Positions 2,638-63,008 are shown, counted from the first letter of the stretch. The stretch is DNA of 64,000 bases from Acidobacteriota bacterium (GCA_965222655.1 CBDCUP010000009.1:391991-455990); one strand, 5' to 3'. Notes: generated by a model not told the origin, from the letters alone. Translations and numbers: made by a program.

Positions 2638-3005
2638 ACTGATTTTTTCATCTTAACAGTCTCGGAATTTCAATCAAGTGAGCTGTTCTCTGAGACCGCC
2701 CTTTCGTCACAGCCGGGGTGTCCCGAAACAGCCTTTTACGGCCTTGGCCGTCGGCACGAAGTGCCTACTTAAAGCAGGGGGGGAAGCAATTGTCCAAACC
2801 GTGTAGGCCTGGGAAGCCTGCCTTTCCACTTTTCCATCAGGCCCAATTTTTCTTTCTTTTTTGTTTCTTTTTTTGTAACTACTCAGGTAGCACCACCATG
2901 ATGCTGCCTGCGAATCAAGAGTAGCTTACCCCCCCCGAAAGCAACAGAAAAAAACCGAGTTTTTTCGCTGGACTCGGACGGGGTTCGTGGGGTATGGTGT
3001 GAACC

Positions 3006-3884
3006 ATGGCAGGCGTCATGGTCACGCAAGGACGGGAACTGCGCGCCGCAGACATCGACCTGATCCAAGGTCTGATGGCGGAACATCCGGACTGGGGCAG
3101 AACCCGGCTGAGCGAGGAACTCTGCCGGCGGTGGGACTGGCGCAACGCCCAGGGCCGCTTCAAGGATATGGCGGCCCGCACGCTGCTGCTGAAGTTGGAA
3201 CGTGGCGGCCTCATCCGACTGCCGAGGCGCCAGCGACCTTCGTCCAACGGGTTGCGGAACCGCCAGGCGCCCCTGGTGGCTCATGCGACCGAACCGATCC
3301 GTGACGCGTTGGGCGACCTACGACCGCTGAGGCTGAGCGTGGTGGAGTCGGGCTCCGCAGACCTGCAGCTGTTCAACTGCCTGCTCCGCCGCTACCACTA
3401 CCTCGGCCACCGCAACACGGTGGGCGAGAACCTCCGCTATCTGGCACGCGACCGCGCCGGCCGGGCGTTGGGCTGCGCGCTGTTCGGATCGGCCGCGTGG
3501 AAGTGAGCCGCGCGCGATGCCTTCATCGGATGGGAACGCCGGGCGCGGGAACACAACCTCTCGCGCTTGACCAACAACACGCGCTTTCTGGTCTTGCCCT
3601 GGGTCACGGTGCCGCACCTGGCCAGCCACCTGCTCGGGTCTATCGGCCGACAGATTCGCGCCGACTGGCAGAGCAAGTATGGCCATCCGGTTGATGCGCT
3701 GGAAACCTTCGTGGATCGCAGCCGCTTCCGGGGAACCTGCTACCGGGCGGCCAACTGGGTGCCCCTCGGCGCGACGCAGGGGCGGAGCCGCAACGACCGG
3801 GACCATGGCATCCGCGTCTCCATCAAGGAGGTCTACCTCTACCCCTTGATCCAGGACTTCCGCCGGGAGTTGTGCGCATGCTGA
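3006..3884 (+). pseudogene. DUF4338-like accessory ORF, interrupted by an in-frame TGA at 3504-3506
   Basis: Same frame before and after the TGA; motifs RYHYLG, FLVLPWV, CYRAANW shared with the intact paralogue at 8818-9720 (AAWK*AARD here vs AAWRIAARD there). Confidence 0.55.
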
Positions 3885-5341
3885 CGCGCGAAGAGGCACT
3901 GGCCATCTACCAGGCGGGGCCACAGACCGTGGTGCGGGTGTTCTTGGAGATGGACGCGCGTATCCACGCGCTGGAGCAACGCGTCGAGGAGTTGCAGGCG
4001 CAAGTCCAGCCGCTTCAAGATCAACTGGCCCAGAACTCGCGCAACAGCAGCAAGCCGCCCTCCAGCGATGGGCTCCACAAACCTTCGCCCAAGAGCCTTC
4101 GCCAGAAAGGCCGTCGCCAATCGGGCGGACAGCCCGGACATAAGGGGCACACGCTCCAGAGGGTCGAGAAGCCTGATCGTACCGAAGTCCACCGCGTGGA
4201 CGCGTGCGAGTGCTGCGGTCGTCCGCTGGGCGATCAGCCACCCGAGCAGGTCGAGAAACGACAAGTCCACGACCTGCCCCCCAGGCAGAGGGTGGTCACC
4301 GAGCATCAGGCCGAAATCAAACTCTGCTCCTGCGGCCACCGGAACCAAGGGGCCTTCCCCGCCGGGGTCAACGCCCCGGTGCAATACGGTCCCTGCGCCC
4401 GGGCCGCGGCCGTCTATTTGAACAACTCTCAGTTCCTGCCCTATGAGCGCACCTGCCAGCTGCTGGACGATCTGTTCGCCTGCCCCATGAGCGAAGGAAC
4501 CCTGGCCAACCTCATTGCCGAGTGCCAGCAGCGGCTGGAAGATCCCGTGGCTCGAATCAAGCAGCAGATCGCACAGGCCCCGGTCGCGCATTTTGATGAG
4601 AGCGGCTCACGGGTGGAGGGCAAACTCTGGTGGTTGCATGCGGCCTCCACACCCAACGCCCCCTATTACGCGATCCATCGCAAACGCGGCTCGGAAGCTC
4701 TCGATGCCATCCACATCCTGCCCCAGTTCCTCGGACGAGCCCTTCACGACTCTTGGAAACCCTACTTCGGCTACTCCTGTCTGCATGGATTGTGCAACGC
4801 TCACCATCTGCGCGAGTTGATCTTCGTGCACGAGCAGCACCAACAGGACTGGGCCGATCAGATGATCGACTGCCTTCTGGATATCAAACAGGCGGTCGAT
4901 CAGGCCGCACCGACCGCTGACCGTCTCCCTGAAAAACAGATCCAGGCATGGGAAGCCCGTTATCAGCAGATCCTGGAGGAAGGCTTTGCTCACAACCCGT
5001 TGTCACCGCGACCTGCCAACGCCCAGAAGAAACGAGGAAGGCGCAAAAAAACCAAACCTCGCAACCTGCTCGAACGCCTGGACCAACACCGCCAAGAAGC
5101 CTTGGCCTTCATGTACGATTTCAACGTCCCCTTCGATAACAACCTGGTCGAAAGGGACATTCGCATGATGAAGGTGCAACAGAAGATTTCCGGCACATTC
5201 CGAAGCGAAGCCGGCGCGAAGGCTTTCTGTACTATTCGAAGCTACCTCTCCACCGCCCGCAAGAACGCCGTGGGCGCCATTGACGCTCTGGCCCGCGTCT
5301 TCAGCGGCGACCCGTTCGTGCCGACCCTCGACTCCTCGTAG
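3878..5341 (+). CDS. tnpC: IS66 family transposase (TnpC type)
   Basis: Leucine-zipper N-terminus, SSKPPSSDG, CxxC...CxCG zinc finger, HFDESG, NAHHLREL, NNLVERDIR motifs; start overlaps upstream ORF stop. Confidence 0.85.
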   Translation: MLTREEALAIYQAGPQTVVRVFLEMDARIHALEQRVEELQAQVQPLQDQLAQNSRNSSKPPSSDGLHKPSPKSLRQKGRRQSGGQPGHKGHTLQRVEKPDRTEVHRVDACECCGRPLGDQPPEQVEKRQVHDLPPRQRVVTEHQAEIKLCSCGHRNQGAFPAGVNAPVQYGPCARAAAVYLNNSQFLPYERTCQLLDDLFACPMSEGTLANLIAECQQRLEDPVARIKQQIAQAPVAHFDESGSRVEGKLWWLHAASTPNAPYYAIHRKRGSEALDAIHILPQFLGRALHDSWKPYFGYSCLHGLCNAHHLRELIFVHEQHQQDWADQMIDCLLDIKQAVDQAAPTADRLPEKQIQAWEARYQQILEEGFAHNPLSPRPANAQKKRGRRKKTKPRNLLERLDQHRQEALAFMYDFNVPFDNNLVERDIRMMKVQQKISGTFRSEAGAKAFCTIRSYLSTARKNAVGAIDALARVFSGDPFVPTLDSS

Positions 5342-5516
5342 CCGACCCTGCTCGTGCCCCATCAGACCGGCTCCGCCTGGATGCGCGATTATGAGTTCGA
5401 ATAGGAATAGGTAACCGGAAACCGCCTTGCACAAATCCTGTTCATCCTGTAAATCCTGTCAGCCATTGACCTGAGTAGTTACCTTTTTTTAAGCATTTAG
5501 ACTTTCCCACAGGTCC

Positions 5517-7006
5517 TTACGCGGCCTGGTGGCTTTGCCGATTCAAAAGATTACCCTTCTGGTCATAGCGCCCCAGAAGATGCGGTCCATAGTGCAGGCT
5601 CAAAGTACCGTCCAAGTGCTCGCAGACCAGGACCCGGCAACCTCCCATGCTGTAGCGAAACTTCTGAGGCTCAATCTGCAAGGTATGCTTGTAGTAGGTC
5701 ACGGTGTTGTCGTGATCCACCACCCGCTGCTCGTGCCGAGAGAAGATCTTTTCCAGATCCGCCCCGTCAGCAGGGACGAAAGCCGTTCCTGGCTGCTCGG
5801 CCGGCACGGTAAATCGTTTATTGTGAAACGGGATCCAATAATCGTGAAGAAACGGTTGGCTTCCTCTAACGTTGGTAAGATCGTTCAAGCGCAGTTCCTG
5901 GGGCAGCCTCCCTTGCCAGGTTCCATACAGCCGCTCGCAGCGGCCTCGGGCTTGAGGGGAGTTGGCGACAATCAGCTCGATGCCCAGCTGCTCCAGGGCT
6001 CTGGCGATCTGGGTTCGGTGGCTACGATCCGGTGGACCTCCCGCTTTCGGAGTGTAGACCAGATGAGAGGCCCGATCCCCATTGGTGCAGCGCCGTCAAC
6101 GCCTGGTTCCATTTCGTTTCCAGCTCGCCCCGCTTTGCCTTCGAGAGCGCTCCTTGTAAAGGAGGTGGTCAAGAAAAAAGGCATCTTCTGTCAGCGAGGT
6201 CTTGATCCGCCGCTCCTCTCGGCCAGAGTGTCCCAGCCTCGGCTCTGCGGATTCACCAGCAAACGCGAGAGCCGCACCTTCGCCTCCACCTTCCCTTTCT
6301 CTTGCGCCTGGCCCGCCCGGCAGGCATCAATGTGAAACCCGACCGAGCGGGCGTAGGCCCGGTACAGCGGATGGATCACTCCCCAGGGCCCGCTTCCGGA
6401 CACCACGGCCGTCTTGACGTTGTCAATCCGGTTGACCGCCGCTACCCCCTTCAAACGGCGGAAGCTCTCGTTGTGGCAGTGCAGCCAGGAGAGTTGATCC
6501 TGCCGCCGGCTCCACACAATGGCTGGCCAGCGGCTGTGAGAGAGGACCATGACAAAGGCCGACAGGGACTCGAACTCTCCACCGATCACCACCGATGGAT
6601 ACTCGGCCCAATCGGTTTGGCTCTGGGCTCCCGCTGGCGTCTCCACCCGTCGCCAGGTCCTCACTTTGGGCCTCGGCCAATGCCGACGCACATAGCGCAG
6701 GACCGATCGATAGGATCCGTCATAAGCCCACTCGTAAAGCAGATGCTCGTACAACTCCCGCACGTTGACGGGACGTTTCCGTCCTTGACGCCCTTCCATC
6801 CAGCACCCGATCACTCTCTCCATCGCCTCGGCCTTGAAGGGCTTGTCCTCTCGCCCGTCCCTGCACCCGGCTGCGGCTCGCTTCAGGTGGTAGCGCACGG
6901 TCCCTTCACTCACTCCCAGGGTCCGAGCGATCTCACAGTGATTCTTTCCCTTGGACGCTAAAACTCCAATCGTCACCACTTCCTCCTCACTGAGGCGTAC
7001 CGGCAT
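5517..7006 (-). pseudogene. IS21-family IstA-like transposase remnant, frame broken between 5888 and 6191; no istB
   Basis: HTH N-terminus, QTDWAEY...SAFVMVLSHSRW rve/DDE region (6191-7006) and C-terminal piece (5517-5888) in different frames. Confidence 0.5.
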
Positions 7007-7257
7007 CCCTGACCTCCCTTCAATCAGGGAGCATCGGGGATGACTCTGACGCCTCCTTTGGGGAAGGGTCGTAAGACTTCGCGTCCCCTAAGAAATCAAT
7101 TGGGTGCGGCTCTTTTAGAACAGGCGATTCTGGTGCCGTCGAACGCAAGATGGACCTCTCTTACTATGGGAGCGGCGAAGGCATTTTGGGGTTGGGTAGT
7201 TGGGTGGGGCAGAACAATCTGACACGGAAGACCGACCGATTGGACTTCTGGATCTTC

Positions 7258-8814
7258 TTACTTCACCCGCTTCAGGTGAGAGCGCGTGGGGCCGCGCACA
7301 GGGACCAGCTCGCCGTCCGCGTAGCGCGCGGCATGGTTTCTGAGCGACTCCTGCCGCTCGTGAAAGCGCCAATAGGCGTCGAAGTCTCCGCTGGCCTGCA
7401 GCGCACGCAGGCGTAAGACCGCCTCAGCCCCCGCCAGAGACCAGCGCGCCCCGGTCACCTCCATCCGATCTTTGACCAGGTAACGGCAGGCCCCCTCGAT
7501 GACACCGGTGGCAATCGGGAACCCCCTCGCCAGATAGGTGTCATACTTCAGATACTCCGCATTTTTGAGCAGATAGTTGGCGCAGCGATCCACCGCTTCG
7601 CGCGCCTTGCCCGCCAGGCCCCGACGGGTCGCACTGCGACGGATTCCGCCCGCCACATAGCCACTGCGCCCGCGCAGAATACTCAGTAGGTGCTCGCCCA
7701 CCCAGCCCTCCAGCTTCGGGTTGACTTCCCCGTGCAGAGCCATGCCGGCCTTCCACACGTACTCGCTCACGTGGATGAAGTCCAGCACGATCGTGGGCGC
7801 CGCCCTGGCGGATCGGTGCAAACACCGCAGCAGCGTCTTCAGCTGACTCCGATGGCCGTCGACCAGCACCACCCAACTCTTGCGCCCCGTGGGATCCCGC
7901 GAGCGGGCTTCTCCGAGGGCTTGCTCGATGACCTCTTCGGGACGCTTCTCCAAGCTCGCCCACAGCCGTTTGTGCTGGGGCCGCGGTCGCTTCCCTTCCT
8001 CCCGCTGCGGCTGCGGGGCCAGGACCCGCATCACCTCCTCCGGCCGCCGCACCTGAGGCGCGAGGGTGTACACCGCCGCGACCGTTGCCATCCGCTTGGC
8101 GTGGCGCTTTTCGCCCTTGCTCAACCGCTTCTGCAACTTGTGCTCGCTCGCTTCCGCCCGCTGCCGCGTCGCCTCCCGCAGATCCTCACGACGCAGCACC
8201 ACTCCTTTGCCGTCCACCGAGATCGCCAAGATCGACCCCGACTCGCTCGGAGCCAACGCTCCCGCTTGTCGCTCCTGATAGAAGGCATCGAAGTCCTGGG
8301 CGGCACGGCCCACTAGCTCCTCCACCTGACGCTTGCCCACCTGCGCCCCCGTGGTTTTCGACAGCGCCTCCACGACTTTGTCGAACGACCCCTCGGCGGC
8401 TTCCTCCGCCGCCCGCCGCCGCACCTGGTGCGAGTACAACTCCGGCGGGAGGTTCAGATCCGCATCCAGTGGGTGCAGGCTCTGGAGCCCCTCTCCCCCG
8501 TAGCCGAGCCGCTCCACCCGAACCTCTCCAAAGACCGTTTCCAGCCCCCGTTGCTGCCGCCGGCGCTGTTGCCGCACCTGCCCTTCCGAATCCCGCACCG
8601 CAGCGGCCGCTTCACCCGGAGCCCGCAGCTCCAGGTGCGCCTGGTAGAACCGTCGCAGCAGCTCCCGCCCCTGCTGCTCCAGCTCTCGCTCCAACTCGCT
8701 GTGCGTCTTCCTATGGGCCTCGTCGGACATCAGAAAGGCCTCCATCTGGGCAAACTGCTCCCGCGCCGCCGCGAACTCATCCTCGGGCTGTAACTGGGCG
8801 GCTACCGCTCGCAA
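7258..8814 (-). CDS. DDE transposase, ISKra4-like family
   Basis: 518-aa ORF, C-terminal ATGVIEGACRYLVKDRME...ARWSLAGAEAVLRLRAL block typical of this transposase group; family assignment from memory. Confidence 0.6.
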   Translation of the reverse strand: MRAVAAQLQPEDEFAAAREQFAQMEAFLMSDEAHRKTHSELERELEQQGRELLRRFYQAHLELRAPGEAAAAVRDSEGQVRQQRRRQQRGLETVFGEVRVERLGYGGEGLQSLHPLDADLNLPPELYSHQVRRRAAEEAAEGSFDKVVEALSKTTGAQVGKRQVEELVGRAAQDFDAFYQERQAGALAPSESGSILAISVDGKGVVLRREDLREATRQRAEASEHKLQKRLSKGEKRHAKRMATVAAVYTLAPQVRRPEEVMRVLAPQPQREEGKRPRPQHKRLWASLEKRPEEVIEQALGEARSRDPTGRKSWVVLVDGHRSQLKTLLRCLHRSARAAPTIVLDFIHVSEYVWKAGMALHGEVNPKLEGWVGEHLLSILRGRSGYVAGGIRRSATRRGLAGKAREAVDRCANYLLKNAEYLKYDTYLARGFPIATGVIEGACRYLVKDRMEVTGARWSLAGAEAVLRLRALQASGDFDAYWRFHERQESLRNHAARYADGELVPVRGPTRSHLKRVK

Positions 8815-8817
8815 CTT

Positions 8818-9720
8818 CTAGCCCTCCCGCAAGCGTCGGGCCGCCTCCGCCACCAGCGGATACACCAGCACCCGTTTCGGCGCTGCCGCCTCGCTCCGCG
8901 CCAGCCGATCCTCTCGCTTCCCGCCCCGCGTGCTCCCCAGCTCGATCCAGTTCGCCCCCCGATAGCAGCTGCCCCGGTAGCGCTCCGGATCCACCAACGT
9001 CTCCACCAAAAACACCTCGACCCCGTAGCTCCGGGGCCAGTCCAGCGCCAGCTGCCGCACGGCCCGCGATAAGATCCGGCTCGCCAGGTTCTTGACCTGG
9101 ACCCAGGGCAACACTAAATAGCGACTGTTCGAGACCACGTGCACCAGCTGGCGCGTCCGCGCCTCCGCCTCCCATCCGATCCAGCGGTCGCGCGCCGCAA
9201 TCCGCCAGGCCGCGCTCGAAAACTGCACGCAGGCCACCACCCGCCCCGCCGGCTCCGAGGCGTAGACCAGGTAGCGCAGATGCGCCCCGAACGGCACCCG
9301 GTGGCCTAGATAGTGGTAGCGCCCCACCAGCTCCCGGAACAGCCCTCGTTGCTCCGGCGTCCGAACCGGCTGCAGCTGAATCTCGCCCAGGTCCCGGGCC
9401 GTGCCCACCAGCCGGGGACCCGGCTCTCCCCGCGCCGTCACCGGTACCCCGGTCGCTTTCCCCGGCGGCCGCCCCAGCCGCTTGGGGGGCAACACCAGCC
9501 CCCCCTGGCTCTCCAGCTTCTCCAGAAACTCCCGGCTCTCCCGCGCTTTCAGCGACCCCGTGCGGCGCTTCCACCCCAGCAACTCGCACACGGTGGCGGC
9601 CAGTTCCATCCGGCTCAGACCCCCACACGTCCCCACGATCTCCCGGATCAGGGCCTGCTCCGCTTTGCCCACCTCATGACCTAGGAATCGCGGCGCTTTG
9701 CTCTCCACACCCTCTGCCAC
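8818..9720 (-). CDS. DUF4338-like protein, intact accessory ORF of the ISKra4-like element
   Basis: RYHYLG, YLVLPWVQV, CYRGANW motifs; paralogue of 3006-3884. Confidence 0.6.
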   Translation of the reverse strand: MAEGVESKAPRFLGHEVGKAEQALIREIVGTCGGLSRMELAATVCELLGWKRRTGSLKARESREFLEKLESQGGLVLPPKRLGRPPGKATGVPVTARGEPGPRLVGTARDLGEIQLQPVRTPEQRGLFRELVGRYHYLGHRVPFGAHLRYLVYASEPAGRVVACVQFSSAAWRIAARDRWIGWEAEARTRQLVHVVSNSRYLVLPWVQVKNLASRILSRAVRQLALDWPRSYGVEVFLVETLVDPERYRGSCYRGANWIELGSTRGGKREDRLARSEAAAPKRVLVYPLVAEAARRLREG

Positions 9721-9993
9721 AAACCTACGCTAGCAAACCGACGCACAAATGTCCAGTGCTTTTTTCCCTCTTTCAATTTTTCATCGCACCGGGATTCCAC
9801 CGACTCACAGCGGGCAGAGTCTCAGGCCCGGCCCGGCGGCTATCCGAGCGCACCGCAATCCGACGCGTTTTAGCCGACTTATGCCCTTCGCCAAGCCTTA
9901 TCTCGCCCAAAAGCGCCACTCGCTACGATTCGGACCCGGCTAACCTATTGTCAATAAAGGATAATGGTTCGCTCTAAAAGAGCCGCACCCAAA

Positions 9994-10629
9994 TCAATTA
10001 GCAGGTTCCGTCACAGCATCGTCGAAAACCATGATCAGGTCCTGTTGGCCTCGCCCGGGGAGCCAGGAGTGTTTGCTGGCGTCCACATGCAAGAGGATCC
10101 CGGGCAAAAGGGGCCGCCTGGGCCGCCGTTTGCGGTGCTTGCCTCGCTTGGAGGCCTTCTTGACTAAGCCGGCCTCTTGCAGGGCTTTCTTGACCCAACT
10201 GTAGCTCAAGTGAATATCGTGCTCGTGGTGGAGCTTGTCCACGAAATGCCTGACGTTGAAGTCAAAGTACTTGTCGCGATAAAGCTCAAGCACCTTCTCC
10301 ACGGTTTTCAGTGGAACGCGCTTGGGACTGGGGCGTTTCAATCACCGGTCGTATAGGCCATCGTAGCCGTACTTCTCATAACGGTGTCTCCAACGCCTCA
10401 TCGTTCGCGGTGAGACCCCAATGATCTCGGCTGCCTGAATCCAGGTAATCTGTTTACTCATGGCTCTTAGAATCACTTCTTGAATCTTCATTGCCCGTCT
10501 CCTTGCTCGGGCCGGGTAAACTCTTCCGGAGAATGCCTCAACTCGTCCCTCCTTTCTAAGCTGAGGCCTCATCCTAACCGGGCTGCTCGGACCGGACACT
10601 TCACATGCTACGACGACCGGACATTTCAC
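9994..10629 (-). pseudogene. ISNCY-like transposase N-terminal remnant with in-frame TGA (10342-10344), 3'-truncated by the ISKra4-like terminal repeat
   Basis: MKIQEVILRAMSKQITWIQAAEIIGVSPRTMRRW HTH, then YDR*LKRPSPKRVP...YFDFNVRHFVDKLHHEHDI in the same frame; ORF terminates inside the ISKra4-like IR. Confidence 0.5.
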
Positions 10630-10840
10630 ATGTTACCGACACAAGACAAGACATTTTTTCACTTGACGTCATCGGATAATTCCACAAAAATCAGAACTGC
10701 CGGATTTCTGGAGAAACCTCGGAACTAGCGGGTCAGTTAGAAGAATTGTTTCCACGATCAAGCGCTTGAGAGCTTCGGAATTGGGGCTCAATTCTTTTAC
10801 ATACGCTTGGATAACGGTGATTACATTTTGATGTTTCCTT

Positions 10841-40370: not shown

Positions 40371-42797
40371 ATGAATATAGACACCGAACTGCAAGATTAC
40401 GAGGCGGCGGGATCGCTGGCCGAGGAACTGCCTTATTGGGGGTGGCTTGACGATGAGCGGTCCTGTCTCACGCGGGCCGGGGAGTTGATGAGCTTGGCCC
40501 GCATTTCTCCTTTTGTCCTGGACGGCCAAACGGCCCGGCAGCTAGACCGGGTGATTGACCGCTGGCAGCGGATGTTAAGCGGCCTGAACGCCCGCACCCG
40601 ATTTTACTTCTATCTCTTGAGGCGTCCCATTCGCTTCCCAGAAGTGCCGCCTAGCGGCGCGTCCAAGGTGGTGACGCTCGGCCAACGAAAGCGGCGGGAA
40701 TTTCTCACAGAGCGAGTGCAGGACGTGTCGGCCTATGTTGCATGGGCTTACGATCCGGGCCTATCCACCGTGGCATCCGTGAGGCCCGGTGGACCCTGGT
40801 GGATAACCTACGCGAAGAACTGGATGGCGAGGCGGCGGAACGCGCAGAGGTCCGTTTACCTCCATTCCTCGATAGAAGCGGCGGCGGCGGGCTTTCGGCA
40901 AACGGTCGATGCCAGCCGGGCGCTTGTGGATGACCTCACGCCCTTGCGGTTGCTCCAAGCGCACGAGGCCAGCGTGATTTTGAGCGAACTCACCAACCGG
41001 CCCGGAACGCCGTGGGACGGCGCGACCGGCAGCGGCATGAATTGGAGGTTGGCCGTCTCCGAACTCGAAGCGGAGCGGCGCAACCTTCGCCTGGACGGGG
41101 AGCCCGTTGTGCTCTACTCGCTGCTCTCTCCCCCAGGCTCGGCCCGGAGCAATCTGTTGTCCGATCTTTACCGCCTCGATGCGACCCTGACGGTCACGCT
41201 CGAATGGCGACCGCAGCGCCTTGATGCCGCCCGGCGAAAGATCCGGGGAGCGCAGCGTCATTACTTCTCAAAGCGGTACTCAATGAGCGCCCACGTGCAG
41301 GAGACGGAGGGGAGCGCCGCGGCTATGGTGGACACAGCGGCGGCGGCGGAGTCCGACCGTTTAGGGGATGCCCTGGTCGAGCTTGAGACGGACGGCGTTG
41401 CTTACGGCGACCTTGCCCTGACGATTGCGATTCACGGCCCTTTAGAGCACTCCGAGAGCCTGGACGGGGATATCCGGCGCATCTTCGCCAGCCACGACGC
41501 CAAGGTGATCCGCGAGGGATACGGCCAACTCCCCGCTTGGTTTTCGCGGATGCCAGGGCAACCCCGGAGGCGGCAGGTACGATCCGTGTTTGTCTCGGCA
41601 GGTGTGACCGCTTGCATGGCCCCGATCTTCGGTCCACCTGTGGGAACTCCCCAGAGCGGCCACTTGCGGGCCCCAGCCCTGGCAATCCTTGAGACCCAAT
41701 GGCGGACCCCTTACCACTACGATCTATTTGCTGGCGACGTGGGACATACGCTGGTGTTGGGCGCAACCGGCGCGGGCAAAAGTTTCGCGCTCAATTTCCT
41801 GTTGGTCCAAGCCCTCCAATACGATCCGCGCATCCTGATTCTCGATCTAGGCGGTTCTTACCGCTGGCTCACCCAATTCTTGGGCGGAGGATACATGGAG
41901 CTATCCCCGGCAGCGGCAGACGGTGAAGGTGTCCAGCTACGCCCCTTCTCTTTACCGGCAGGAGAGCGGACCTACCAATTCCTGACGGGTTGGATTTCCC
42001 GGCTGCTTCGCATCGGCGGATGGAACTTGAGCGGTTCCGATCCGAGCGAGATCCGCGCCCGCGTGGAAGACCTCTATGCTTTCGCGCCAGCGGAGCGGAC
42101 CCTTGGAACGCTGGTCCACTCTTTGCCCTCAAAAATGTGGCCCGCGCTGGGCCGCTGGCACGGCGACGGCGCATGGGGCCGCTACTTCGATAACCCGGCA
42201 GACGGGGACGACCTGGAATTTCAAGACTGGCAGGTGATCGACATGGCCGGCGCCGCGGAGCATGACGACTTATGCGAGGCGGCGCTGTTCTACCTTTTGG
42301 AGCGGTTGCGCCTCGCCCTGGAGAACCCCGACGAGACCGCCCGCGTCAAGCTCATGGTGGTAGACGAGGCGTGGCGCTACCTTCAAGATCCCGCCGTCCT
42401 TTCCTATCTCGCAGAGGCCGCCAAAACCTGGCGCAAGAAGAACGCGGCGCTGATCGTGGCGACTCAAAGCGCCGTGGACGTGACGGGAACGGCGGGCGCG
42501 GAGGCGTTGCTTGAATCCATGCCGACCAAGCTCTTCCTTGCCAACCCGGACCTGCCTGAGAAGGCCGCAGAAACCTTCCGGTTGAACCCCTCGGAAATGA
42601 ACACCATTCGAGGCTTGATCCCGAAGCGAGAGCTTTACTTGAGACGCCCCGACGCGGCGGGGATCTTACGCCTTGAAGTCGATCCGGCCAGCTATTGGCT
42701 TTACACCTCTTCGCCGGTGGATGCGGCGAAGCGGGCCGCAGCCGTCGAAGAACACGGTTTAGAACTGGCCCTTGAACACTTATCAAAACGGAGGTAA
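40371..42797 (+). CDS. virB4: T4SS ATPase VirB4/TrbE
   Basis: 808 aa; Walker A GATGAGKS, Walker B MVVDEAW, CagE/TrbE/VirB4 architecture. Confidence 0.9.
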   Translation: MNIDTELQDYEAAGSLAEELPYWGWLDDERSCLTRAGELMSLARISPFVLDGQTARQLDRVIDRWQRMLSGLNARTRFYFYLLRRPIRFPEVPPSGASKVVTLGQRKRREFLTERVQDVSAYVAWAYDPGLSTVASVRPGGPWWITYAKNWMARRRNAQRSVYLHSSIEAAAAGFRQTVDASRALVDDLTPLRLLQAHEASVILSELTNRPGTPWDGATGSGMNWRLAVSELEAERRNLRLDGEPVVLYSLLSPPGSARSNLLSDLYRLDATLTVTLEWRPQRLDAARRKIRGAQRHYFSKRYSMSAHVQETEGSAAAMVDTAAAAESDRLGDALVELETDGVAYGDLALTIAIHGPLEHSESLDGDIRRIFASHDAKVIREGYGQLPAWFSRMPGQPRRRQVRSVFVSAGVTACMAPIFGPPVGTPQSGHLRAPALAILETQWRTPYHYDLFAGDVGHTLVLGATGAGKSFALNFLLVQALQYDPRILILDLGGSYRWLTQFLGGGYMELSPAAADGEGVQLRPFSLPAGERTYQFLTGWISRLLRIGGWNLSGSDPSEIRARVEDLYAFAPAERTLGTLVHSLPSKMWPALGRWHGDGAWGRYFDNPADGDDLEFQDWQVIDMAGAAEHDDLCEAALFYLLERLRLALENPDETARVKLMVVDEAWRYLQDPAVLSYLAEAAKTWRKKNAALIVATQSAVDVTGTAGAEALLESMPTKLFLANPDLPEKAAETFRLNPSEMNTIRGLIPKRELYLRRPDAAGILRLEVDPASYWLYTSSPVDAAKRAAAVEEHGLELALEHLSKRR

Positions 42798-48922: not shown

Positions 48923-51229
48923 ATGGAATTGCGGAAGAACTGCCGGACACTGATCACGGCCTTGAACCGGTTTTGGCACCGGGAGGCCGGGCCGATGAAC
49001 TGGAAAAACCCCGTCCGCGTGGTGGCCTATATCGGCTGGGAAATTTTCAACGTCATGGCCTTCTTGGTGGGTGAATGGGTCCGGTACGGCGTCCGGGCCA
49101 GTCAGATTGTCCTGGCCATTCCCCCTACCGTGATCCTCTTTTCCGGGGGGGTTTGGTTCGCCGTTTGGAGCTTTGTCCGGCGTCCTTTTCCGGCGCTTGA
49201 GACGGTCCCTTTGCTCGATCTTTTGGAGTATCACAACCCGAATGTTTACAGTGCCGTGGTGATCTGGTACTACCTTTCTCCGCTGGTGGCGGTGATGCTG
49301 GCCGGATCTATTTCCCTGTCTATTTGGAAGGTTTGGATTGAGGCGCGAAAGCGCGATTTACTTCCCTTTGGGGCGCTCCCCGCTTGGCCTCTTTCCCCGA
49401 AGCAGCCCGGCCCCGAAATCGTCATCGGGGAAGTGCATCATCCGGTCGAAGCCAGGGAGATTTTCAACCCCGGATGGCTCACCATCCCGGAGCGCGGACT
49501 GTATACCGGCATTGCCATTTTTGGAGCGGTGGGGAGCGGCAAAACTTCGGCCTGTATGCACCCCTTCGCCAAGCAGCTACTCGGCTGGCAAGCGGACGAT
49601 CCGGAGCGGAGGCCAGCGGCGCTCATGCTCGAAGTGAAGGGAGATTTTTGCCATGACATTCGCTCGATCCTGGATAACGCGGGCCGGGGAGACGACTACC
49701 TGGAGATCGGAATGGGCGGCGTCTGGAAATGGAACCCCCTCTCCGCGTGGTGGCTCGATTCATACTCGCTGGCCTACACCGTTGCCAGCCTTCTCAATCA
49801 GCTTTTCGGCAAGGGCAAGGAGCCTTTTTGGCAGCAAGCCTATACCAATCTGGTGCGCTGGATTATCGAGCTTCACCGGGTGCTGCCGGAGCAGTGGGTG
49901 ACATTGCAGCAGGTCTATCAATGCGCCATTGACCCGGATCTTTTCGCGGCCAAGATCAAACAGGCCGAGGCATGGAGCGCGGAGCTAAACACCGGGGAGG
50001 TTTTCATTCCGTCCGAAATCTGGAAACCAAAAATGTACGATCTAGCCGATTGGGACATGAAGGCCACACCGGACGGGAAGGAAATGCAGACCGTCTACAC
50101 CGTGGACCTGGCTCATAAGCTAGAGGAATTGGAGATCAAGCCTCGTATCGTTTGGGAGCCCGGAGCCGGGGACGATGTGAGAGAGCGGGTGGCCACTGTG
50201 AAGCGGTGGTTTGACAACGACTGGCAAAAGCTGGACAACAAAATCAAATCCTCGATTGTCGAAGGCGTTTCCGTATTCCTGTCAATGTTCGATATGCCGG
50301 ACGTGGCGGCGGTGTTCTGTCCCCCGCCCCCGGAAGTGTCCGACGATCCCCGGCGCATCGGCCCGAAGGCCAGGGCCGCGATGCTGGCCGAGGCAAAGGC
50401 CCAGGCCAAGGGCCGGGGGGAGGCAAGCGGCGAGAAGAAGGGCAAGGAGGACCGGCAATGGCCCGCCCATACCATTGCCGAAAGGCCGCGCTATTTACCC
50501 CCGCTCTATGAATTGATCGAGGGCGGCAAGGTGCTGGCCTTGAACATGCCAGCCGGGAGCAACCCGGCGCTGGCCCGCGCCATCGGCGTGATGCTCAAAA
50601 ACGCATGGCTCCAAGCCTTGCTCATGCGACCGGCTCAGATGAAGGAATCCCCCACGGCCTACTTTCGGCCAGCGGTCTTTATCTGTGACGAGTACCAATC
50701 CTTCGCATCGGTGGGCGAGGACGATCCGACCGGCGATGAGAAATCCTTTGCCTTAACGCGGCAATGCCGCTGCATCCCGATTGTTGCGACCCAATCCATA
50801 TCCTCATTGCGGGCCGTGCTTGGCAGTTCGGAGGCGTGGCGGGCGCTCTTGCAGACGCTTCGCACCCGGATCTTCCTATCCTTGAGCGACGACGCCAGCG
50901 CCAAGATTGCATCGGAATTGTGCGGGCAGGTTGCCAAGATCAAAGGATCGTACACGATCAGCGAGACCTCGAAGCGGGCGGGCGTGTCCCCGCTCTCAGG
51001 CCGCGCCGGTGGATCGGGCGGCGGGAGCATCGGCGCAACCAAGTCTTTCCAGGAGCGCCGGGAGGCCGTCTTTCACCCGCGAGACTTCGCCTTGCTTGGA
51101 AACTGTCAGGCTATTTGCTTGCCCTATGACGGGGCGCAATCGCTGGAACCCAGGAGGGTTTATCTCAAACCTCATTACCTTCCCCTGGAACATTCTTATT
51201 GGAGAGCGAAGGAGGCCGGAGAGATATGA
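48923..51229 (+). CDS. virD4: Type IV coupling protein VirD4/TraG
   Basis: N-terminal TM helices; Walker A GAVGSGKT; TraG/TrwB family length; true start may be ATG at 48995. Confidence 0.85.
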   Translation: MELRKNCRTLITALNRFWHREAGPMNWKNPVRVVAYIGWEIFNVMAFLVGEWVRYGVRASQIVLAIPPTVILFSGGVWFAVWSFVRRPFPALETVPLLDLLEYHNPNVYSAVVIWYYLSPLVAVMLAGSISLSIWKVWIEARKRDLLPFGALPAWPLSPKQPGPEIVIGEVHHPVEAREIFNPGWLTIPERGLYTGIAIFGAVGSGKTSACMHPFAKQLLGWQADDPERRPAALMLEVKGDFCHDIRSILDNAGRGDDYLEIGMGGVWKWNPLSAWWLDSYSLAYTVASLLNQLFGKGKEPFWQQAYTNLVRWIIELHRVLPEQWVTLQQVYQCAIDPDLFAAKIKQAEAWSAELNTGEVFIPSEIWKPKMYDLADWDMKATPDGKEMQTVYTVDLAHKLEELEIKPRIVWEPGAGDDVRERVATVKRWFDNDWQKLDNKIKSSIVEGVSVFLSMFDMPDVAAVFCPPPPEVSDDPRRIGPKARAAMLAEAKAQAKGRGEASGEKKGKEDRQWPAHTIAERPRYLPPLYELIEGGKVLALNMPAGSNPALARAIGVMLKNAWLQALLMRPAQMKESPTAYFRPAVFICDEYQSFASVGEDDPTGDEKSFALTRQCRCIPIVATQSISSLRAVLGSSEAWRALLQTLRTRIFLSLSDDASAKIASELCGQVAKIKGSYTISETSKRAGVSPLSGRAGGSGGGSIGATKSFQERREAVFHPRDFALLGNCQAICLPYDGAQSLEPRRVYLKPHYLPLEHSYWRAKEAGEI

Positions 51230-58462: not shown

Positions 58463-60046
58463 TCAAACTCGGACAGCATCGGCAATCTGCTGTTTCTCTT
58501 TCGGGGGATCAGGCAGATCGTACTCCTTCAGGGAACCTTCTAGACGTGTGTCTACTTGAGAAATCGATCCAATCGATCCAATCGAGCCGCCAGCATGTAG
58601 GTACAGGAAGTTGCCGTCGATCTTGCGCCAGCCGATATGGGTGTAGACGTGCTGGGTTGGCACGTCGCCGGAAAGGTGTTGAATTGCCTCTCTCGCTCGA
58701 TCCTTGGCTCCATAACCGGCGGAAACAATGGCTCCCGCGCCAAGATTCTCCACGACCCATTGCATACCGGAAAACTGGTTGGCCGGGATAGTGAAGCGGC
58801 AAGGCTTGCCTCTCAACACAGCTTCGATCTCAAAGGATTGCCTGGTCTCTTCACCGTCGTCCTCCACCACGTCCCTGGCTATGCACGCTGTGAAGTTGGT
58901 TAGGACCACGGGTTTGACCCCATCATTTGTGGACTTGTTCCAGATGAGACCGTGATCCTTCACTCCGTAGATTGTATTCAGCGGATCACCGAACCCCTTA
59001 CTGACAAGGGCAGCAGCAGCAGCGCTGAAATTGCGAGAGTGGTTGAGATAGGTGTGGGCAGCAAACTTGTTATAGGCTCGCCCGGCTTCGAACGGATCGG
59101 CATTCGTGCTGAAAACATAAAGCAGATCACTTCCACCAAAGTTAGTGGTCGCTGAGACACCGGCGTCCTTACCTGGCCTGCGCCAGTACGTGGCTTCTCC
59201 GTTGTGCCCTACCTTCGCCCAGCCGAGCGGTTCCAGCACCTCTTCCCAGGTTGCCTTTCGGTTGAACGCATCACCCGGTCGGTTGCCGTTACGAGTGGAA
59301 GGGCCAGTGATGAGCCGCGCTGGCTCGACGTGCTCATTGAGGGCACGAGCACATTGCAGAAGAAGTTCTCTCTCAGCCGCACTGATGTTTGGAATACGTG
59401 TCAGATTCCCCTGGTCTAACACGTATGGCTTGTTCGAGGGATGACAGGCTTCAGGGGAGCCTGGAAGGAGAACATAGCCGCCCTCTCCCCTCGTCTCGAT
59501 CAGTACGACTGCTTTGCCATCCTCACCGGCCTGCCCTGCCAACTTTTGGTTCCGCTGCACACCATCTGGACATCTGTAGAAGGCGTGGCATCCCCCCCTC
59601 GGTGTCGAAACGAGTACCAGCCTGTCGAGAAGCTTTTCTTGCCCCTGCTCAAGGACCAGATAGAGCCACTTGGGAAACGCAGCACCACCAGCATCAAAAT
59701 CAAGGATTTCGAGGTTGCCGCTGACGCCTCCGGCAACTGTTCCAATCCCATTGCTACTGCCATTGCCAAACCAGTTTTTGAGCTCCTCATCAGTTGGCAA
59801 GTTCGATTGGTATGGTTTCCAAGGGATGAGAGGAGCTTTGCTGCCATCTGCTTTGATCGGAATCACTGACAGACCAGCGTCTACGAGTTGGCGTGCGAAA
59901 GAGAGCAGATCCGTGGTTTCGGTATGGGGAGTTTCATCCACAGTCGTCTGCCGCGAATCAACACTTTCCGAGATAGCTCCGGCCTTTAGGGACCACCGGG
60001 CTGATTCCCGAGGTGGAGACTCCTGCGGTGGGAACAGGTCGCTCAT
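58463..60046 (-). CDS. Bifunctional DNA primase/polymerase (PrimPol, archaeo-eukaryotic primase fold) with C-terminal extension lacking a Walker A helicase motif
   Basis: LSVIPIKADGSKAPLIPWKPYQ...LDFD...GGCHAFYR Prim-Pol N-terminal domain signature; ATGA overlap with upstream XRE gene. Confidence 0.75.
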   Translation of the reverse strand: MSDLFPPQESPPRESARWSLKAGAISESVDSRQTTVDETPHTETTDLLSFARQLVDAGLSVIPIKADGSKAPLIPWKPYQSNLPTDEELKNWFGNGSSNGIGTVAGGVSGNLEILDFDAGGAAFPKWLYLVLEQGQEKLLDRLVLVSTPRGGCHAFYRCPDGVQRNQKLAGQAGEDGKAVVLIETRGEGGYVLLPGSPEACHPSNKPYVLDQGNLTRIPNISAAERELLLQCARALNEHVEPARLITGPSTRNGNRPGDAFNRKATWEEVLEPLGWAKVGHNGEATYWRRPGKDAGVSATTNFGGSDLLYVFSTNADPFEAGRAYNKFAAHTYLNHSRNFSAAAAALVSKGFGDPLNTIYGVKDHGLIWNKSTNDGVKPVVLTNFTACIARDVVEDDGEETRQSFEIEAVLRGKPCRFTIPANQFSGMQWVVENLGAGAIVSAGYGAKDRAREAIQHLSGDVPTQHVYTHIGWRKIDGNFLYLHAGGSIGSIGSISQVDTRLEGSLKEYDLPDPPKEKQQIADAVRV

Positions 60047-60351
60047 GTTCTTCTTCTCCCGAGAGTGAACTCGTCCCTCTTTCCCCGCAATCGAAGGTCG
60101 ATCGTACACGCGCCATCTCGATCAAGAACCGCCGCCGCCTCGTCTTCCGTCACTTCCTCCTGCAGTTCTTCAGGACGGAGCCTCAGCGCCTGTCCCAGCT
60201 TTTGACTCTGCCCTGGATAAGGACGCATCCGAAGAGTTTCAATCCGTGAGACGTCAGCCATGCCGACATGCGCAATCACGGCCAGCTCCTGCTGACTCCA
60301 TCGCCGCTTCAGGCGTTCCAGCTTCATTCGTGAAATCTTGTTCATGCTCAT
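60043..60351 (-). CDS. XRE-family HTH transcriptional regulator
   Basis: MKLERLKRRWSQQELAVIAHVGMADVSRIE HTH_3 pattern; first gene of minus-strand operon, divergent from 60397 gene. Confidence 0.6.
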   Translation of the reverse strand: MSMNKISRMKLERLKRRWSQQELAVIAHVGMADVSRIETLRMRPYPGQSQKLGQALRLRPEELQEEVTEDEAAAVLDRDGACTIDLRLRGKRDEFTLGRRRT

Positions 60352-61411: not shown

Positions 61412-61843
61412 TCATCTGATGAGTGTTGCAGCACTCGTCTCTCTAGCGTCTTGTCTGTCAGGCTCTGGCAGCAGCCTGCCTATGCCACGCCCGATCGCAT
61501 GTAGCGTCTTCTGCTCTTTGATGTTCTCTCTGAGCACCGCGAGGATGCCCCCAACGAGCGTCGAGATCTCTGCAGCGCTGACCATCATTTCGCTATCTTG
61601 CATACGCTTGTTCTCGCTCTCGACGAGACTCTTCTTGCGATCCATCCACTCACCGAGATTGTGCCAGATGTCTTGCTCGTCGTGGATCTCAGCGAGCAGG
61701 TGCTCGAACTGATTGAGCACGTCGAGAAAGCCGTCGCTGTCGAGTCCCTTCGCTACAGCGGCTTTGGCGTTGCGAACGCTCTTGGCCGAAGGGAGACTGC
61801 TAAACTCCGAGATCATGAAAAGAAGAACCTTCCTGAAGAAGAC
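61412..61843 (-). CDS. Hypothetical protein (start uncertain; ORF tool extends to 61978, which overlaps the next gene)
   Basis: Acidic helical ORF; internal Met chosen to limit overlap. Confidence 0.25.
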   Translation of the reverse strand, partial: VFFRKVLLFMISEFSSLPSAKSVRNAKAAVAKGLDSDGFLDVLNQFEHLLAEIHDEQDIWHNLGEWMDRKKSLVESENKRMQDSEMMVSAAEISTLVGGILAVLRENIKEQKTLHAIGRGIGRLLPEPDRQDARETSAATLIR

Positions 61844-63008
61844 GACCGGTGCCGGTGGAGTCGTGCTTTCCTCGCTGGCAATTGGGACTGGATTCTCCAC
61901 CAGCGAATTGTTGTCCGCAAACCGATCCTCGGAGGCGTCCGATAAAGGAAAGAGTCCCATCAGAGTCGGGGTCATCACCCAAAAGGGCGGGCCTCACCTG
62001 AGTATCTACCTCAAGGCCCTGGCGGCGAGTGAAGGTTTGGCGGGGTTGGCCATTTCGGATGAGAGTGGTGCAACCTTCGAGCAGGCCGAGAGCTCGCTGG
62101 GCCAGCGGTTTCCGAATCTAGGGAAGTTTCGAGACTATCGCAACATGATCGAAAAGTTCAAGCCGCAGATGGTGCTCATCTCTCTGGAGGCACATCTCGC
62201 ACCGGATCGAATCCGGCGGGCACTGGAAGGAAACTGCAGCGTCCTGGCCGAGAAGCCGGCTTGTGTGCGGGCGGAAGATTTCGAGCCTCTGGTAGAGCTG
62301 GCCGAATCCAGGAATCTACACCTGATGCTGGCTCTTCCCGGACGGCTGCATCCCTCGGCGATCAAGGCGAAGGAGTTGATCCGTTCTGGATTTTTGGGAA
62401 AGCTCTATGGCACCCAGGTATTCCAGGTCAAGGACCAGACGCGCTTGACCCGTGTCAGCTATCACGACTCCTGGTTCGCCTTCAAGAACAAGGCCGGAGG
62501 AGGGCATCTGATCTGGTTGGGAATACACAACTTGGATCTGATTCAGTACCTGGCCGACGATCCCATCGCCAAGGTGTCCGCAGTTTGCAGGAATGTAGGA
62601 GGTCAACCGGTCGAAATCGAGGACGCGGAAGCATTGGCGTTCCAGTTCAAGAGCGGAATGGTTGGCACCTTTCATGGTGGCTACTATCTCGAGCAGGGGG
62701 GGACCCAATCCGCACTGACCATTTGGGGCTCGAAGGGTTGGCTTCGAATGAGTGCTTCTCGACACAAATCCGAGTCGCAGCAGCGGTTGGATTGGCAGTC
62801 GACACACCCCGATGCGCCGGAAGGGATCCAAACGATCCCTCTCCCAACTGGCATCAACAGCTACCAACTCCTGGTGCAGGCAGCGATCAAGGCCTCGGCA
62901 GGGACGGAAGAGGCCCCTCTAACAGGTCGGGATTGCCTACAGGTGCTCCGAGTGATCTTCGGTGCCTATCGCTCCTCGGAGACCGGACGAGAGCAGAGCA
63001 TCGGCTGA
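61815..63008 (+). CDS. Gfo/Idh/MocA-family oxidoreductase with Tat signal
   Basis: MKRRTFLKKTTGAGGVVLSS Tat motif; IRVGVI Rossmann; EKP motif; paralogous in type to 23090-24781. Confidence 0.75.
   Translation: MKRRTFLKKTTGAGGVVLSSLAIGTGFSTSELLSANRSSEASDKGKSPIRVGVITQKGGPHLSIYLKALAASEGLAGLAISDESGATFEQAESSLGQRFPNLGKFRDYRNMIEKFKPQMVLISLEAHLAPDRIRRALEGNCSVLAEKPACVRAEDFEPLVELAESRNLHLMLALPGRLHPSAIKAKELIRSGFLGKLYGTQVFQVKDQTRLTRVSYHDSWFAFKNKAGGGHLIWLGIHNLDLIQYLADDPIAKVSAVCRNVGGQPVEIEDAEALAFQFKSGMVGTFHGGYYLEQGGTQSALTIWGSKGWLRMSASRHKSESQQRLDWQSTHPDAPEGIQTIPLPTGINSYQLLVQAAIKASAGTEEAPLTGRDCLQVLRVIFGAYRSSETGREQSIG

Follow-up and report, generated by a model that had tools for sequence, protein, structure and literature searches.

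A DUF4338 (DruA-family) gene cassette shared by IS66, ISKra4 and other insertion sequences

We analyzed a 64,000-nucleotide stretch of DNA (hereafter the window) from an Acidobacteriota bacterium (GCA_965222655.1 CBDCUP010000009.1:391991-455990), in which two insertion sequences (ISs) of unrelated families, about 1.6 kb apart, each pair a transposase gene with a gene of the DUF4338 family. The one that is our main subject, at 2875-5482, is a complete IS of 2608 bp with only two genes, a DUF4338 open reading frame (ORF) and an IS66 transposase. Its left terminal inverted repeat (IR), GTAACTACTCAGGT (2875-2888, plus strand), is of the IS66/ISBst12 type, begins with GTAA and is the perfect reverse complement of the 14-bp right IR, which lies on the minus strand at 5469-5482 and reads ACCTGAGTAGTTAC on the plus strand. 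The 8-bp target-site duplication (TSD) CTTTTTTT can be read in the sequence directly outside both ends (2867-2874 and 5483-5490). Exact matches to GTAACTACTCAGGT occur at these two sites only in the window, and the chance expectation for matches with up to two mismatches is 0.08 over the 64 kb. One IR-like sequence with two mismatches, GTAGATACTCAGGT (61996-62009), lies within a GFO/IDH/MocA oxidoreductase ORF (61713-63008); as no transposase is present nearby, we rejected it as a real IS end and regard it as a chance match. The GC content of the element is 0.55-0.69, with its maximum of 0.66-0.69 over 3201-4400, and that of the flanking host DNA is ~0.50.

The intact form of the DUF4338 protein (P0001, 98% identical to that of the window) is encoded on at least 14 contigs, and the eight such loci that we fetched yielded eight further full-length 2608-bp copies of the element, which are 97.7-98.5% identical, share the same termini and sit in unrelated neighborhoods. 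Five of these display clear 8-bp TSDs, all different (GAATTATT, TCATGGAG, CAATCAAC, AAAAATTT and TAAATACA), so that with the window included there are nine copies with identical ends and six distinct TSDs; the DUF4338 ORF is inside the IRs in all nine. Because copies with the same ends sit elsewhere, five of them with different TSDs, the two-gene unit transposes as a whole, and we conclude that it is a complete IS66 element of the ISBst12 type that was active recently and carries a DUF4338 cassette. A preliminary description of the stretch had proposed a cleanly bounded unit, with a perfect 14-bp IR and the TSD CTTTTTTT, that had moved as one piece; the boundaries are present as it described them, and the eight additional copies of the 14-bp ends and the five differing TSDs bear out the movement. 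The alternative, that the adjacency of the two genes is an accident of nested insertions and that the DUF4338 ORF is no part of the element, could appeal to the surroundings, which are crowded with IS fragments (of ISNCY and IS21; 5517-7006 and 9994-10629). However, the 2608-bp boundaries are constant in nine copies that occupy different sites with different TSDs, and over 100 loci of many phyla show the same architecture; the conserved boundaries of the copies at other sites refute such an accident, to which we assign practically no probability.

Two further observations concern the insertion behavior of this element. AT-rich TSDs predominate (CTTTTTTT, GAATTATT, AAAAATTT, TAAATACA and CAATCAAC), while the element itself has ~65% GC, and either AT-rich or intergenic sites may be preferred as targets or the TSDs may merely mirror the host composition. 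On one contig (L007), copies of the 2.6-kb element at 1-2403 and 4859-7469 lie in the same orientation less than 2.5 kb apart, and this pair could act like a composite transposon.

The first gene of the IS66-type element (ORF1; 3006-3884, plus strand) codes for a DUF4338/DruA-family protein with an N-terminal helical domain and a GNAT domain and matches PF14236 with 129 bits (E 2.2e-37; cut-off 27). It is a pseudogene in the window: translation and comparison with P0001 place an in-frame TGA at 3504-3506, where the intact copies have TGC (Cys). Another sample (L174) displays the same genomic insertion site and neighbors with an intact 288-aa DUF4338 ORF and an identical transposase, which indicates that the stop is a recent lesion rather than recoding; it is either very young or restricted to the strain, and may even be a sequencing error. 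The second gene (ORF2; 3878-5341, plus strand) codes for an intact, ISBst12-like, TnpC-only DDE transposase of 487 aa from the IS66 family (NF033517 317 bits, cut-off 180; DUF6444, zf-IS66 and DDE_Tnp_IS66 domains; PF03050 E 2.5e-49), whose start overlaps the DUF4338 stop (ATGCTGA). The gene order given in the preliminary description, a DUF4338-like ORF followed by an IS66 TnpC-type transposase, is therefore backed by both profiles, and PF14236 scores well above the cut-off for this and for the second DUF4338 ORF of the window (see below).

None of the ORFs of the IS66-type element shows an IS66 TnpA or TnpB domain, ORF1 matching DruA alone. The annotated transposase relatives nearest to ORF2, at 42-48% identity, come from Acaryochloris, Bacillus and Chlorohelix plasmids, and its hit list is dominated by Bacillus, Deinococcus and Geobacillus; the closest annotated relatives are single-ORF IS66 elements that lack a DUF4338 gene. 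ISDge4, an ISBst12-group member of the IS66 family, is experimentally active and has a single ORF and 8-bp direct repeats (PMC12898284). It resembles our element in its TnpC-type DDE transposase without tnpA and tnpB, in the 8-bp TSD and in its terminal inverted repeats (GTGACTACTCAGCA and GTAACTGCTCAGCA, similar to GTAACTACTCAGGT), the repeats beginning GTAACT.CTCAG. Unlike the ISBst12 group, described as single-ORF, the window element is ~1 kb longer and has a coupled DUF4338 ORF and a promoter-like motif. Since an ISBst12-type backbone is already devoid of tnpA and tnpB, DUF4338 is an addition to it and not a substitute for them. The earlier reading of DUF4338 as cargo "instead of" tnpA/tnpB was thus right about what is absent and what is present, but not about a replacement, as this lineage lacks both genes anyway.

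The neighboring unit is a complete ISKra4 element of 2889 bp (7102-9990) with 18-bp IRs and the 9-bp target duplication AAATCAATT (7093-7101 and 9991-9999). The IR beside the 3′ end of the transposase gene, GGGTGCGGCTCTTTTAGA (7102-7119, plus strand), is a terminal sequence also found in ISCasp3 and in the locus L110, and pairs with the other IR at 9973-9990 (minus strand). Both genes are on the minus strand: an intact DUF4338/DruA ORF of 300 aa (8818-9720; PF14236 E 1e-41, 143 bits) lies 3 nt upstream of the start of a 518-aa ISKra4-family transposase (7258-8814; NF033572 367 bits, cut-off 205). The transposase, the IRs ending in GGG and the 9-bp duplication all place the unit in ISKra4. Thus, the same ORF type does stand upstream of an unrelated ISKra4-like transposase at 7258-9720, as had been noticed in the preliminary description, and the pair sits inside a second complete IS; the same DUF4338-ISKra4 gene pair is also found in a different context in the locus L090. 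The two DUF4338 proteins of the window, which contains no further copies, are just 40% identical to each other, and the second has at least 2930 homologs, mostly on ~3-kb contigs.

ISCasp3 from Calothrix is listed with 1734 bp, one ORF, a 9-bp direct repeat and an IR of the GGGTGCGGCTCTTTTAGA type in Table S1 of Guerillot et al. 2014 (PMC3942029). On this listing it shares with the window unit the terminal sequence, the 9-bp duplication and an ISKra4 transposase, but differs in having 1734 bp with one ORF versus 2889 bp with DUF4338. The same source notes four ISKra4 elements with extra genes of unknown function, which its main text neither identifies nor discusses. Because single-ORF relatives exist (ISDge4 and ISCasp3), DUF4338 was added to a self-sufficient backbone in both IS families.

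The stretch around the ISKra4 element (5491-10650) is an IS graveyard. A minus-strand ISNCY transposase gene is interrupted, with its N-terminal part at 10629-9994 and its C-terminal part at ~6095-5517, and the space between the two holds a truncated IS21 istA (7006-6191) as well as the complete ISKra4/DUF4338 element; the target duplication of the IS66 element directly adjoins the ISNCY remnant.

Comparison of DUF4338 loci shows that the cassette has been exchanged between IS families. Transposase labels are interspersed on a distance tree of DUF4338 proteins, and in the closest cross-family pair, the IS66-linked L108 and the ISKra4-linked L110, these proteins are 81% identical. The DNA similarity of the two loci (77%) spans the DUF4338 ORF together with ~50 bp ahead of it and breaks off exactly at the transposase start, and L110 carries an ISKra4-type IR. 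Module shuffling between IS families, one of the possibilities raised in the preliminary description, is thereby documented by cassettes whose similarity stops at gene boundaries.

The exchanged ~50 bp contain a promoter-like motif that we recovered by a motif survey and whose function is predicted. In the IS66-type element it reads TGGACT, 18 nt, TATGGT (2969-2998, plus strand), ending 8 nt before the ATG at 3006, and in the ISKra4-type element TGGACA, 17 nt, TAGCGT (9727-9755, minus strand). The general form, TGGAC[AT]-N15-19-TAnnnT, precedes DUF4338 in 88 of 150 loci and occurs in 0 of 150 control windows; it is seen in IS66-, ISKra4- and IS4-linked cassettes alike and ends about 8-20 nt before the start codon. 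From its form and position we infer a weak sigma-70-like promoter, which may give a near-leaderless mRNA; alternatively, it may be an operator.

At the other end of the cassette, gene calls place the start of the IS66 transposase 7 nt inside the DUF4338 ORF and that of the ISKra4 transposase 3 nt after it; in 105 of 114 loci, no more than 20 nt lie between the DUF4338 stop and the nearest in-frame transposase start, and the distances peak at −4 (IS66) and +3 (ISKra4). With the DUF4338 stop overlapping or adjoining the transposase start, co-transcription and translational coupling of the two genes are probable. Pairwise Nei-Gojobori comparison gave a median ratio of nonsynonymous to synonymous substitution rates (dN/dS) of 0.18 for DUF4338 and of 0.28 (IS66) and 0.17 (ISKra4) for the adjacent transposases, values that are approximate since dS is saturated and often >1. 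The cassette is kept by purifying selection.

A search over 1.84 billion proteins with a DUF4338 family profile returned 12,478 representatives at the 50% level, 1,983 of them with E≤1e-30, and at least 584 genomic matches came from many phyla. Homologs of both window proteins number in the thousands, typically have ~290-300 aa and are often on 2.3-3.2 kb contigs, the size expected from collapsed multi-copy ISs. We surveyed 160 loci (80 genomic and 80 metagenomic), classifying the downstream same-strand ORF with NCBIfam and iterated local hidden Markov models (HMMs). The genomic loci come from Verrucomicrobiota, Planctomycetota, Acidobacteriota, several proteobacterial classes, Bacillota, Bacteroidota, Nitrospirota, Chloroflexota, Spirochaetota and others. 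Where the sequence extends at least 1.2 kb downstream, a transposase directly follows in 50 of 68 genomic loci and in 53 of 56 metagenomic ones, fractions that describe loci ranked by similarity to IS-borne queries and not the IS-linked share of the whole family. The downstream transposases are of the IS66 (57), ISKra4 (57), IS4 (3), IS1634 (1) and IS1182-like (2) types. IRs that enclose DUF4338 together with an IS4 transposase are seen in L032 (3781-6257) and L036 (35-2519). At a further IS4-linked locus (L172; Thiodictyon plasmid NZ_CP020372.1, 278602-287429), an integrase and IS91 transposase pair is inserted between the DUF4338 gene and the IS4 transposase, and two pieces of a DUF2235 gene bound the whole; apparently, an IS91-type element has inserted into a DUF4338-IS4 element here.

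Beyond adjacency, many family members of 560-880 aa display the DUF4338 module in frame at the N-terminus of a complete transposase. The partners are ISAzo13 (model positions 2-387 of 387), IS630 (2-297 of 299), Tn5-like IS4 (1-405 of 405), IS4 (six separate 50%-identity clusters) and ISAs1, the last on a finished RefSeq plasmid of Thiodictyon and with the GNAT part alone (query residues 95-286). Altogether, at least nine transposase families are associated with DUF4338, either adjacent (IS66, ISKra4, IS4, IS1634 and IS1182-like) or fused (IS4, Tn5-like, IS630, ISAzo13 and ISAs1). Other architectures include a fusion of DUF4338 to an adenylate/guanylate cyclase domain (P0270) and proteins of 810-883 aa with the reversed order, in which an IS66 DDE domain precedes DUF4338 at the C-terminus (P0278 and P0289); these may be real or read-through of tandem elements. 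The cassette is therefore a discrete, selected and portable module common to many DDE transposon families.

An AlphaFold2 model of the protein (pLDDT 81) comprises an N-terminal three-helix domain (~10-62), a low-confidence linker and a C-terminal alpha/beta domain. The three-helix domain is predicted with high confidence and is plausibly DNA-binding, although none of the Pfam helix-turn-helix (HTH) models matches it. In Foldseek searches the C-terminal domain recovers GNAT acyltransferases (SpeG, phosphinothricin acetyltransferase, acyl-homoserine-lactone synthase and AtaT) with probability 1.0 and E ~2e-5; against PDB there are 140 matches at E≤1e-3, the top ones all GNAT enzymes, with target-normalized TM scores of 0.5-0.63. 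The model thus assigns the C-terminal ~190 residues to the GNAT fold, in agreement with the published description of DUF4338 as a GNAT domain (PMC10853773); no solved structure is detectable by sequence for DUF4338 proteins. In BFVD, Foldseek also aligns the GNAT model with a domain in large phage proteins (~500-700 aa) labeled as homing endonuclease or endonuclease-like, e.g., from Campylobacter phage CP21 and various Myoviridae; these matches would be another tie between such GNAT domains and mobile DNA.

PF14236 is matched by all 54 aligned homologs, and the sole other Pfam family that they match is Mom (PF25680), recovered by 17 of the 54 at E≤0.01; no other GNAT family is matched. Mom of phage Mu is a GNAT that moves glycine from Gly-tRNA to adenine N6 in double-stranded DNA (PMC13219725). 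Comparison by hhalign with a 33-sequence Mom alignment covers 152 columns, the entire GNAT core, with an E of 2e-4, though the probability is just 47%. In it, H48/Y49, S114, D139, G146, Y149, N153 and G158 of Mom align with H127/Y128, S203, D233, G239, Y242, N246 and G251 of DUF4338, all invariant or near-invariant. Y49, S114, D139 and Y149 are functionally important in Mom (PMC7261163), and S124 and R111 (S114 and R101 when numbered on the 231-aa sequence) are essential (PMC13219725). In both families, a small helical module, DNA-binding or presumed to be, accompanies the GNAT core, and both are encoded by transposable elements, Mu being a transposing phage.

Closer kinship with Mom is opposed by several features. 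The best Mom score, 24.7 bits (P0208; E about 2e-5 to 6e-5), is below the gathering cut-off of 27.1; the essential Arg (R101/R111) pairs, in this alignment, with an invariant Trp, W195; and Foldseek against PDB and BFVD gives generic GNATs without singling out Mom. The HTH-like insertion inside the GNAT core of Mom (~175-209), which is required for its activity, has no equivalent in the DUF4338 alignment or model, where an N-terminal domain is present instead. The sub-threshold score and the missing insertion place the IS-borne proteins outside the Mom family, and on profile comparison we regard Mom as their nearest characterized relative, below threshold.

The relationship with Druantia is likewise one of domain and not of system. 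The IS-borne proteins and DruA have a common DUF4338 GNAT-like domain, scoring well over the Pfam cut-off, but the PADLOC DruA models match the window proteins weakly and partially (E 5e-6 and 8e-7; 55-82 residues), and the model lengths are 407 and 675 versus ~290 aa for the IS-borne proteins, which are coupled to transposases. No DruB-E genes were found beside IS-borne DUF4338, the neighbors within the elements being transposases, and PADLOC was negative for the neighboring protein tested. The link to Druantia DruA that the preliminary description drew holds at the level of the family (PF14236) only, given the weak PADLOC matches and the absence of any other Druantia gene. Annotations call the gene "DUF4338" or, misleadingly, "Druantia anti-phage system protein DruA"; some IS-borne genes (e.g., that of P0037) bear the latter label in public records, and their context does not support it.

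We posit, with moderate confidence, that an ISBst12 backbone of the IS66 type acquired a portable DUF4338 cassette that codes for a previously undescribed general helper or regulator of DDE transposition. The cassette consists of the promoter-like motif (TGGACW, ~17 nt, TAnnnT) and the ~290-aa ORF, and moves between IS backbones by recombination at gene boundaries. Its protein would work with DDE transposition generally, as helper or regulator, rather than for the host, as suggested by its fusion and its coupling to the transposase and by its constant place upstream; and it would act independently of IS-specific ends or transposases because near-identical cassettes serve backbones with unrelated ends. 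The GNAT domain is likely to be catalytically active, since the residues equivalent to Y49, S114/S124, D139 and Y149 of Mom are conserved. Its substrate would be a macromolecule common to all these elements, for which DNA is the likeliest candidate by analogy with Mom, and the transposase itself or a nucleoid protein are alternatives. The more specific proposal, that the IS-borne proteins are Mom-like nucleic-acid-modifying GNATs that mark DNA, possibly via acyl-CoA or a charged tRNA, draws on the sub-threshold profile similarity to Mom and is rather unlikely in our estimate. Such a mark could control or protect transposition by distinguishing donor from target or old from new strand, or by shielding from host nucleases; Dam methylation distinguishes strands and donor for IS10 and IS50. 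If the Mom-like proposal were true, DruA would be a domesticated descendant or cousin of a transposon module, and this would point to a DNA mark in Druantia.

Several observations weigh against a helper role. The window's own DUF4338 copy is a pseudogene beside an intact transposase, the stricter consensus scan did not call the window's motif, which is weak relative to the sigma-70 consensus, and the dN/dS values and survey fractions carry the limits given above. Moreover, active single-ORF relatives of both backbones transpose without the cassette, which could therefore be dispensable cargo. On such a view, DUF4338 would be a host-beneficial passenger with a stand-alone defense or stress function related to DruA and without a role in transposition. 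Membership in the Pfam family named for Druantia DruA suits this proposal, as do the 18 of 68 genomic loci without a recognizable downstream transposase and the one homolog fused to a guanylate cyclase rather than a transposase. It does not sit well with the repeated in-frame joining of DUF4338 to complete transposases from five families, with a cassette that is always upstream, on the same strand and within a few nucleotides of the transposase, or with its retention in high-copy ISs of very different phyla; with no other Druantia gene nearby and only weak PADLOC DruA matches, we consider a passenger role improbable.

A regulator in the narrower sense, in which the N-terminal domain would bind its own promoter and the GNAT-like domain would sense a metabolite (e.g., acyl-CoA), would make the cassette a portable promoter-repressor. 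ISs commonly limit their own expression, and the conserved motif that travels with the ORF between IS families, the coupling of the ORF to the transposase and the confidently predicted three-helix domain are consistent with such a role. However, the invariant GNAT-core residues are the catalytic or cofactor-binding ones in Mom and other GNATs, the N-terminal domain has no match to a Pfam HTH model, and the fusions fit a free repressor poorly, since the one with ISAs1 retains the GNAT part alone (95-286) and the others share a polypeptide with the transposase; we give this role a low probability. We think it very unlikely that the protein is a toxin-like or anti-defense GNAT that aids IS retention or survival, either as an aminoacyl-tRNA acetyltransferase of the AtaT/TacT type or as an enzyme that inactivates a component of host defense. 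AtaT bound to acetyl-Met-tRNA is indeed among the Foldseek PDB matches, but at rank 39 and without an edge over dozens of other GNATs; a charged tRNA is also used by Mom, the closest profile match; and DUF4338 domains are found in conflict systems, namely Druantia and DndF fusions (PMC10853773). Yet an element with two genes only, DUF4338 and the transposase, has no antitoxin-like partner, and a toxin would be hard to keep at up to tens of copies per genome. Each of these three alternatives, passenger, repressor and toxin-like enzyme, fits the fusion evidence less well than does a helper of transposition.

Elsewhere in the window, the region 36000-60200 displays conjugative-type genes, including a VirB4/TraG-like ATPase (40371-42797), a coupling protein of the TraD/TraG type (48923-51229) and a Prim-Pol primase (58463-60109); this part may be an integrative conjugative element or plasmid-derived.

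The DUF4338 cassette has the hallmarks of a widespread helper: ~12,000 clusters at 50% identity in most bacterial phyla, a motif of its own, transposase coupling, exchange between IS families and repeated fusions. In practical terms, defense-system finders may count IS-borne DUF4338 copies as Druantia components, and the IS66-type element offers a tractable two-gene system for DUF4338 function, which would inform the unsolved mechanism of Druantia. ISs with accessory genes are a known kind of element; for the association of DUF4338/PF14236/DruA genes with ISs, their exchange between IS families and their fusion to transposases, we found no prior description in published full texts, a search outside of which ISfinder lay.

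ISs are usually seen as a transposase with its ends, and the handful of known accessory genes, IstB, TnpA/TnpB of IS66 and TnpB/IscB, have each opened a field. Compared with a canonical IS66 element (tnpA-tnpB-tnpC), the window element has the same NF033517 transposase, 8-bp TSD, GTAA ends and upstream accessory coding capacity that overlaps the transposase gene, but the accessory proteins are unrelated: here there is no TnpA or TnpB domain, and the upstream ORF codes for a GNAT-fold DUF4338 protein. A functional, though not a mechanistic, analogy is offered by TnpB/IscB of the IS200/IS605 and IS607 families, accessory proteins that are unneeded for the chemistry of transposition, accompany several transposase families and were long of unknown function. 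The two share the genetic logic of an accessory gene, and they differ in that TnpB/IscB have a RuvC nuclease fold and work with a guide RNA, whereas the DUF4338 proteins have a predicted GNAT fold and no guide RNA is evident in the elements described here.

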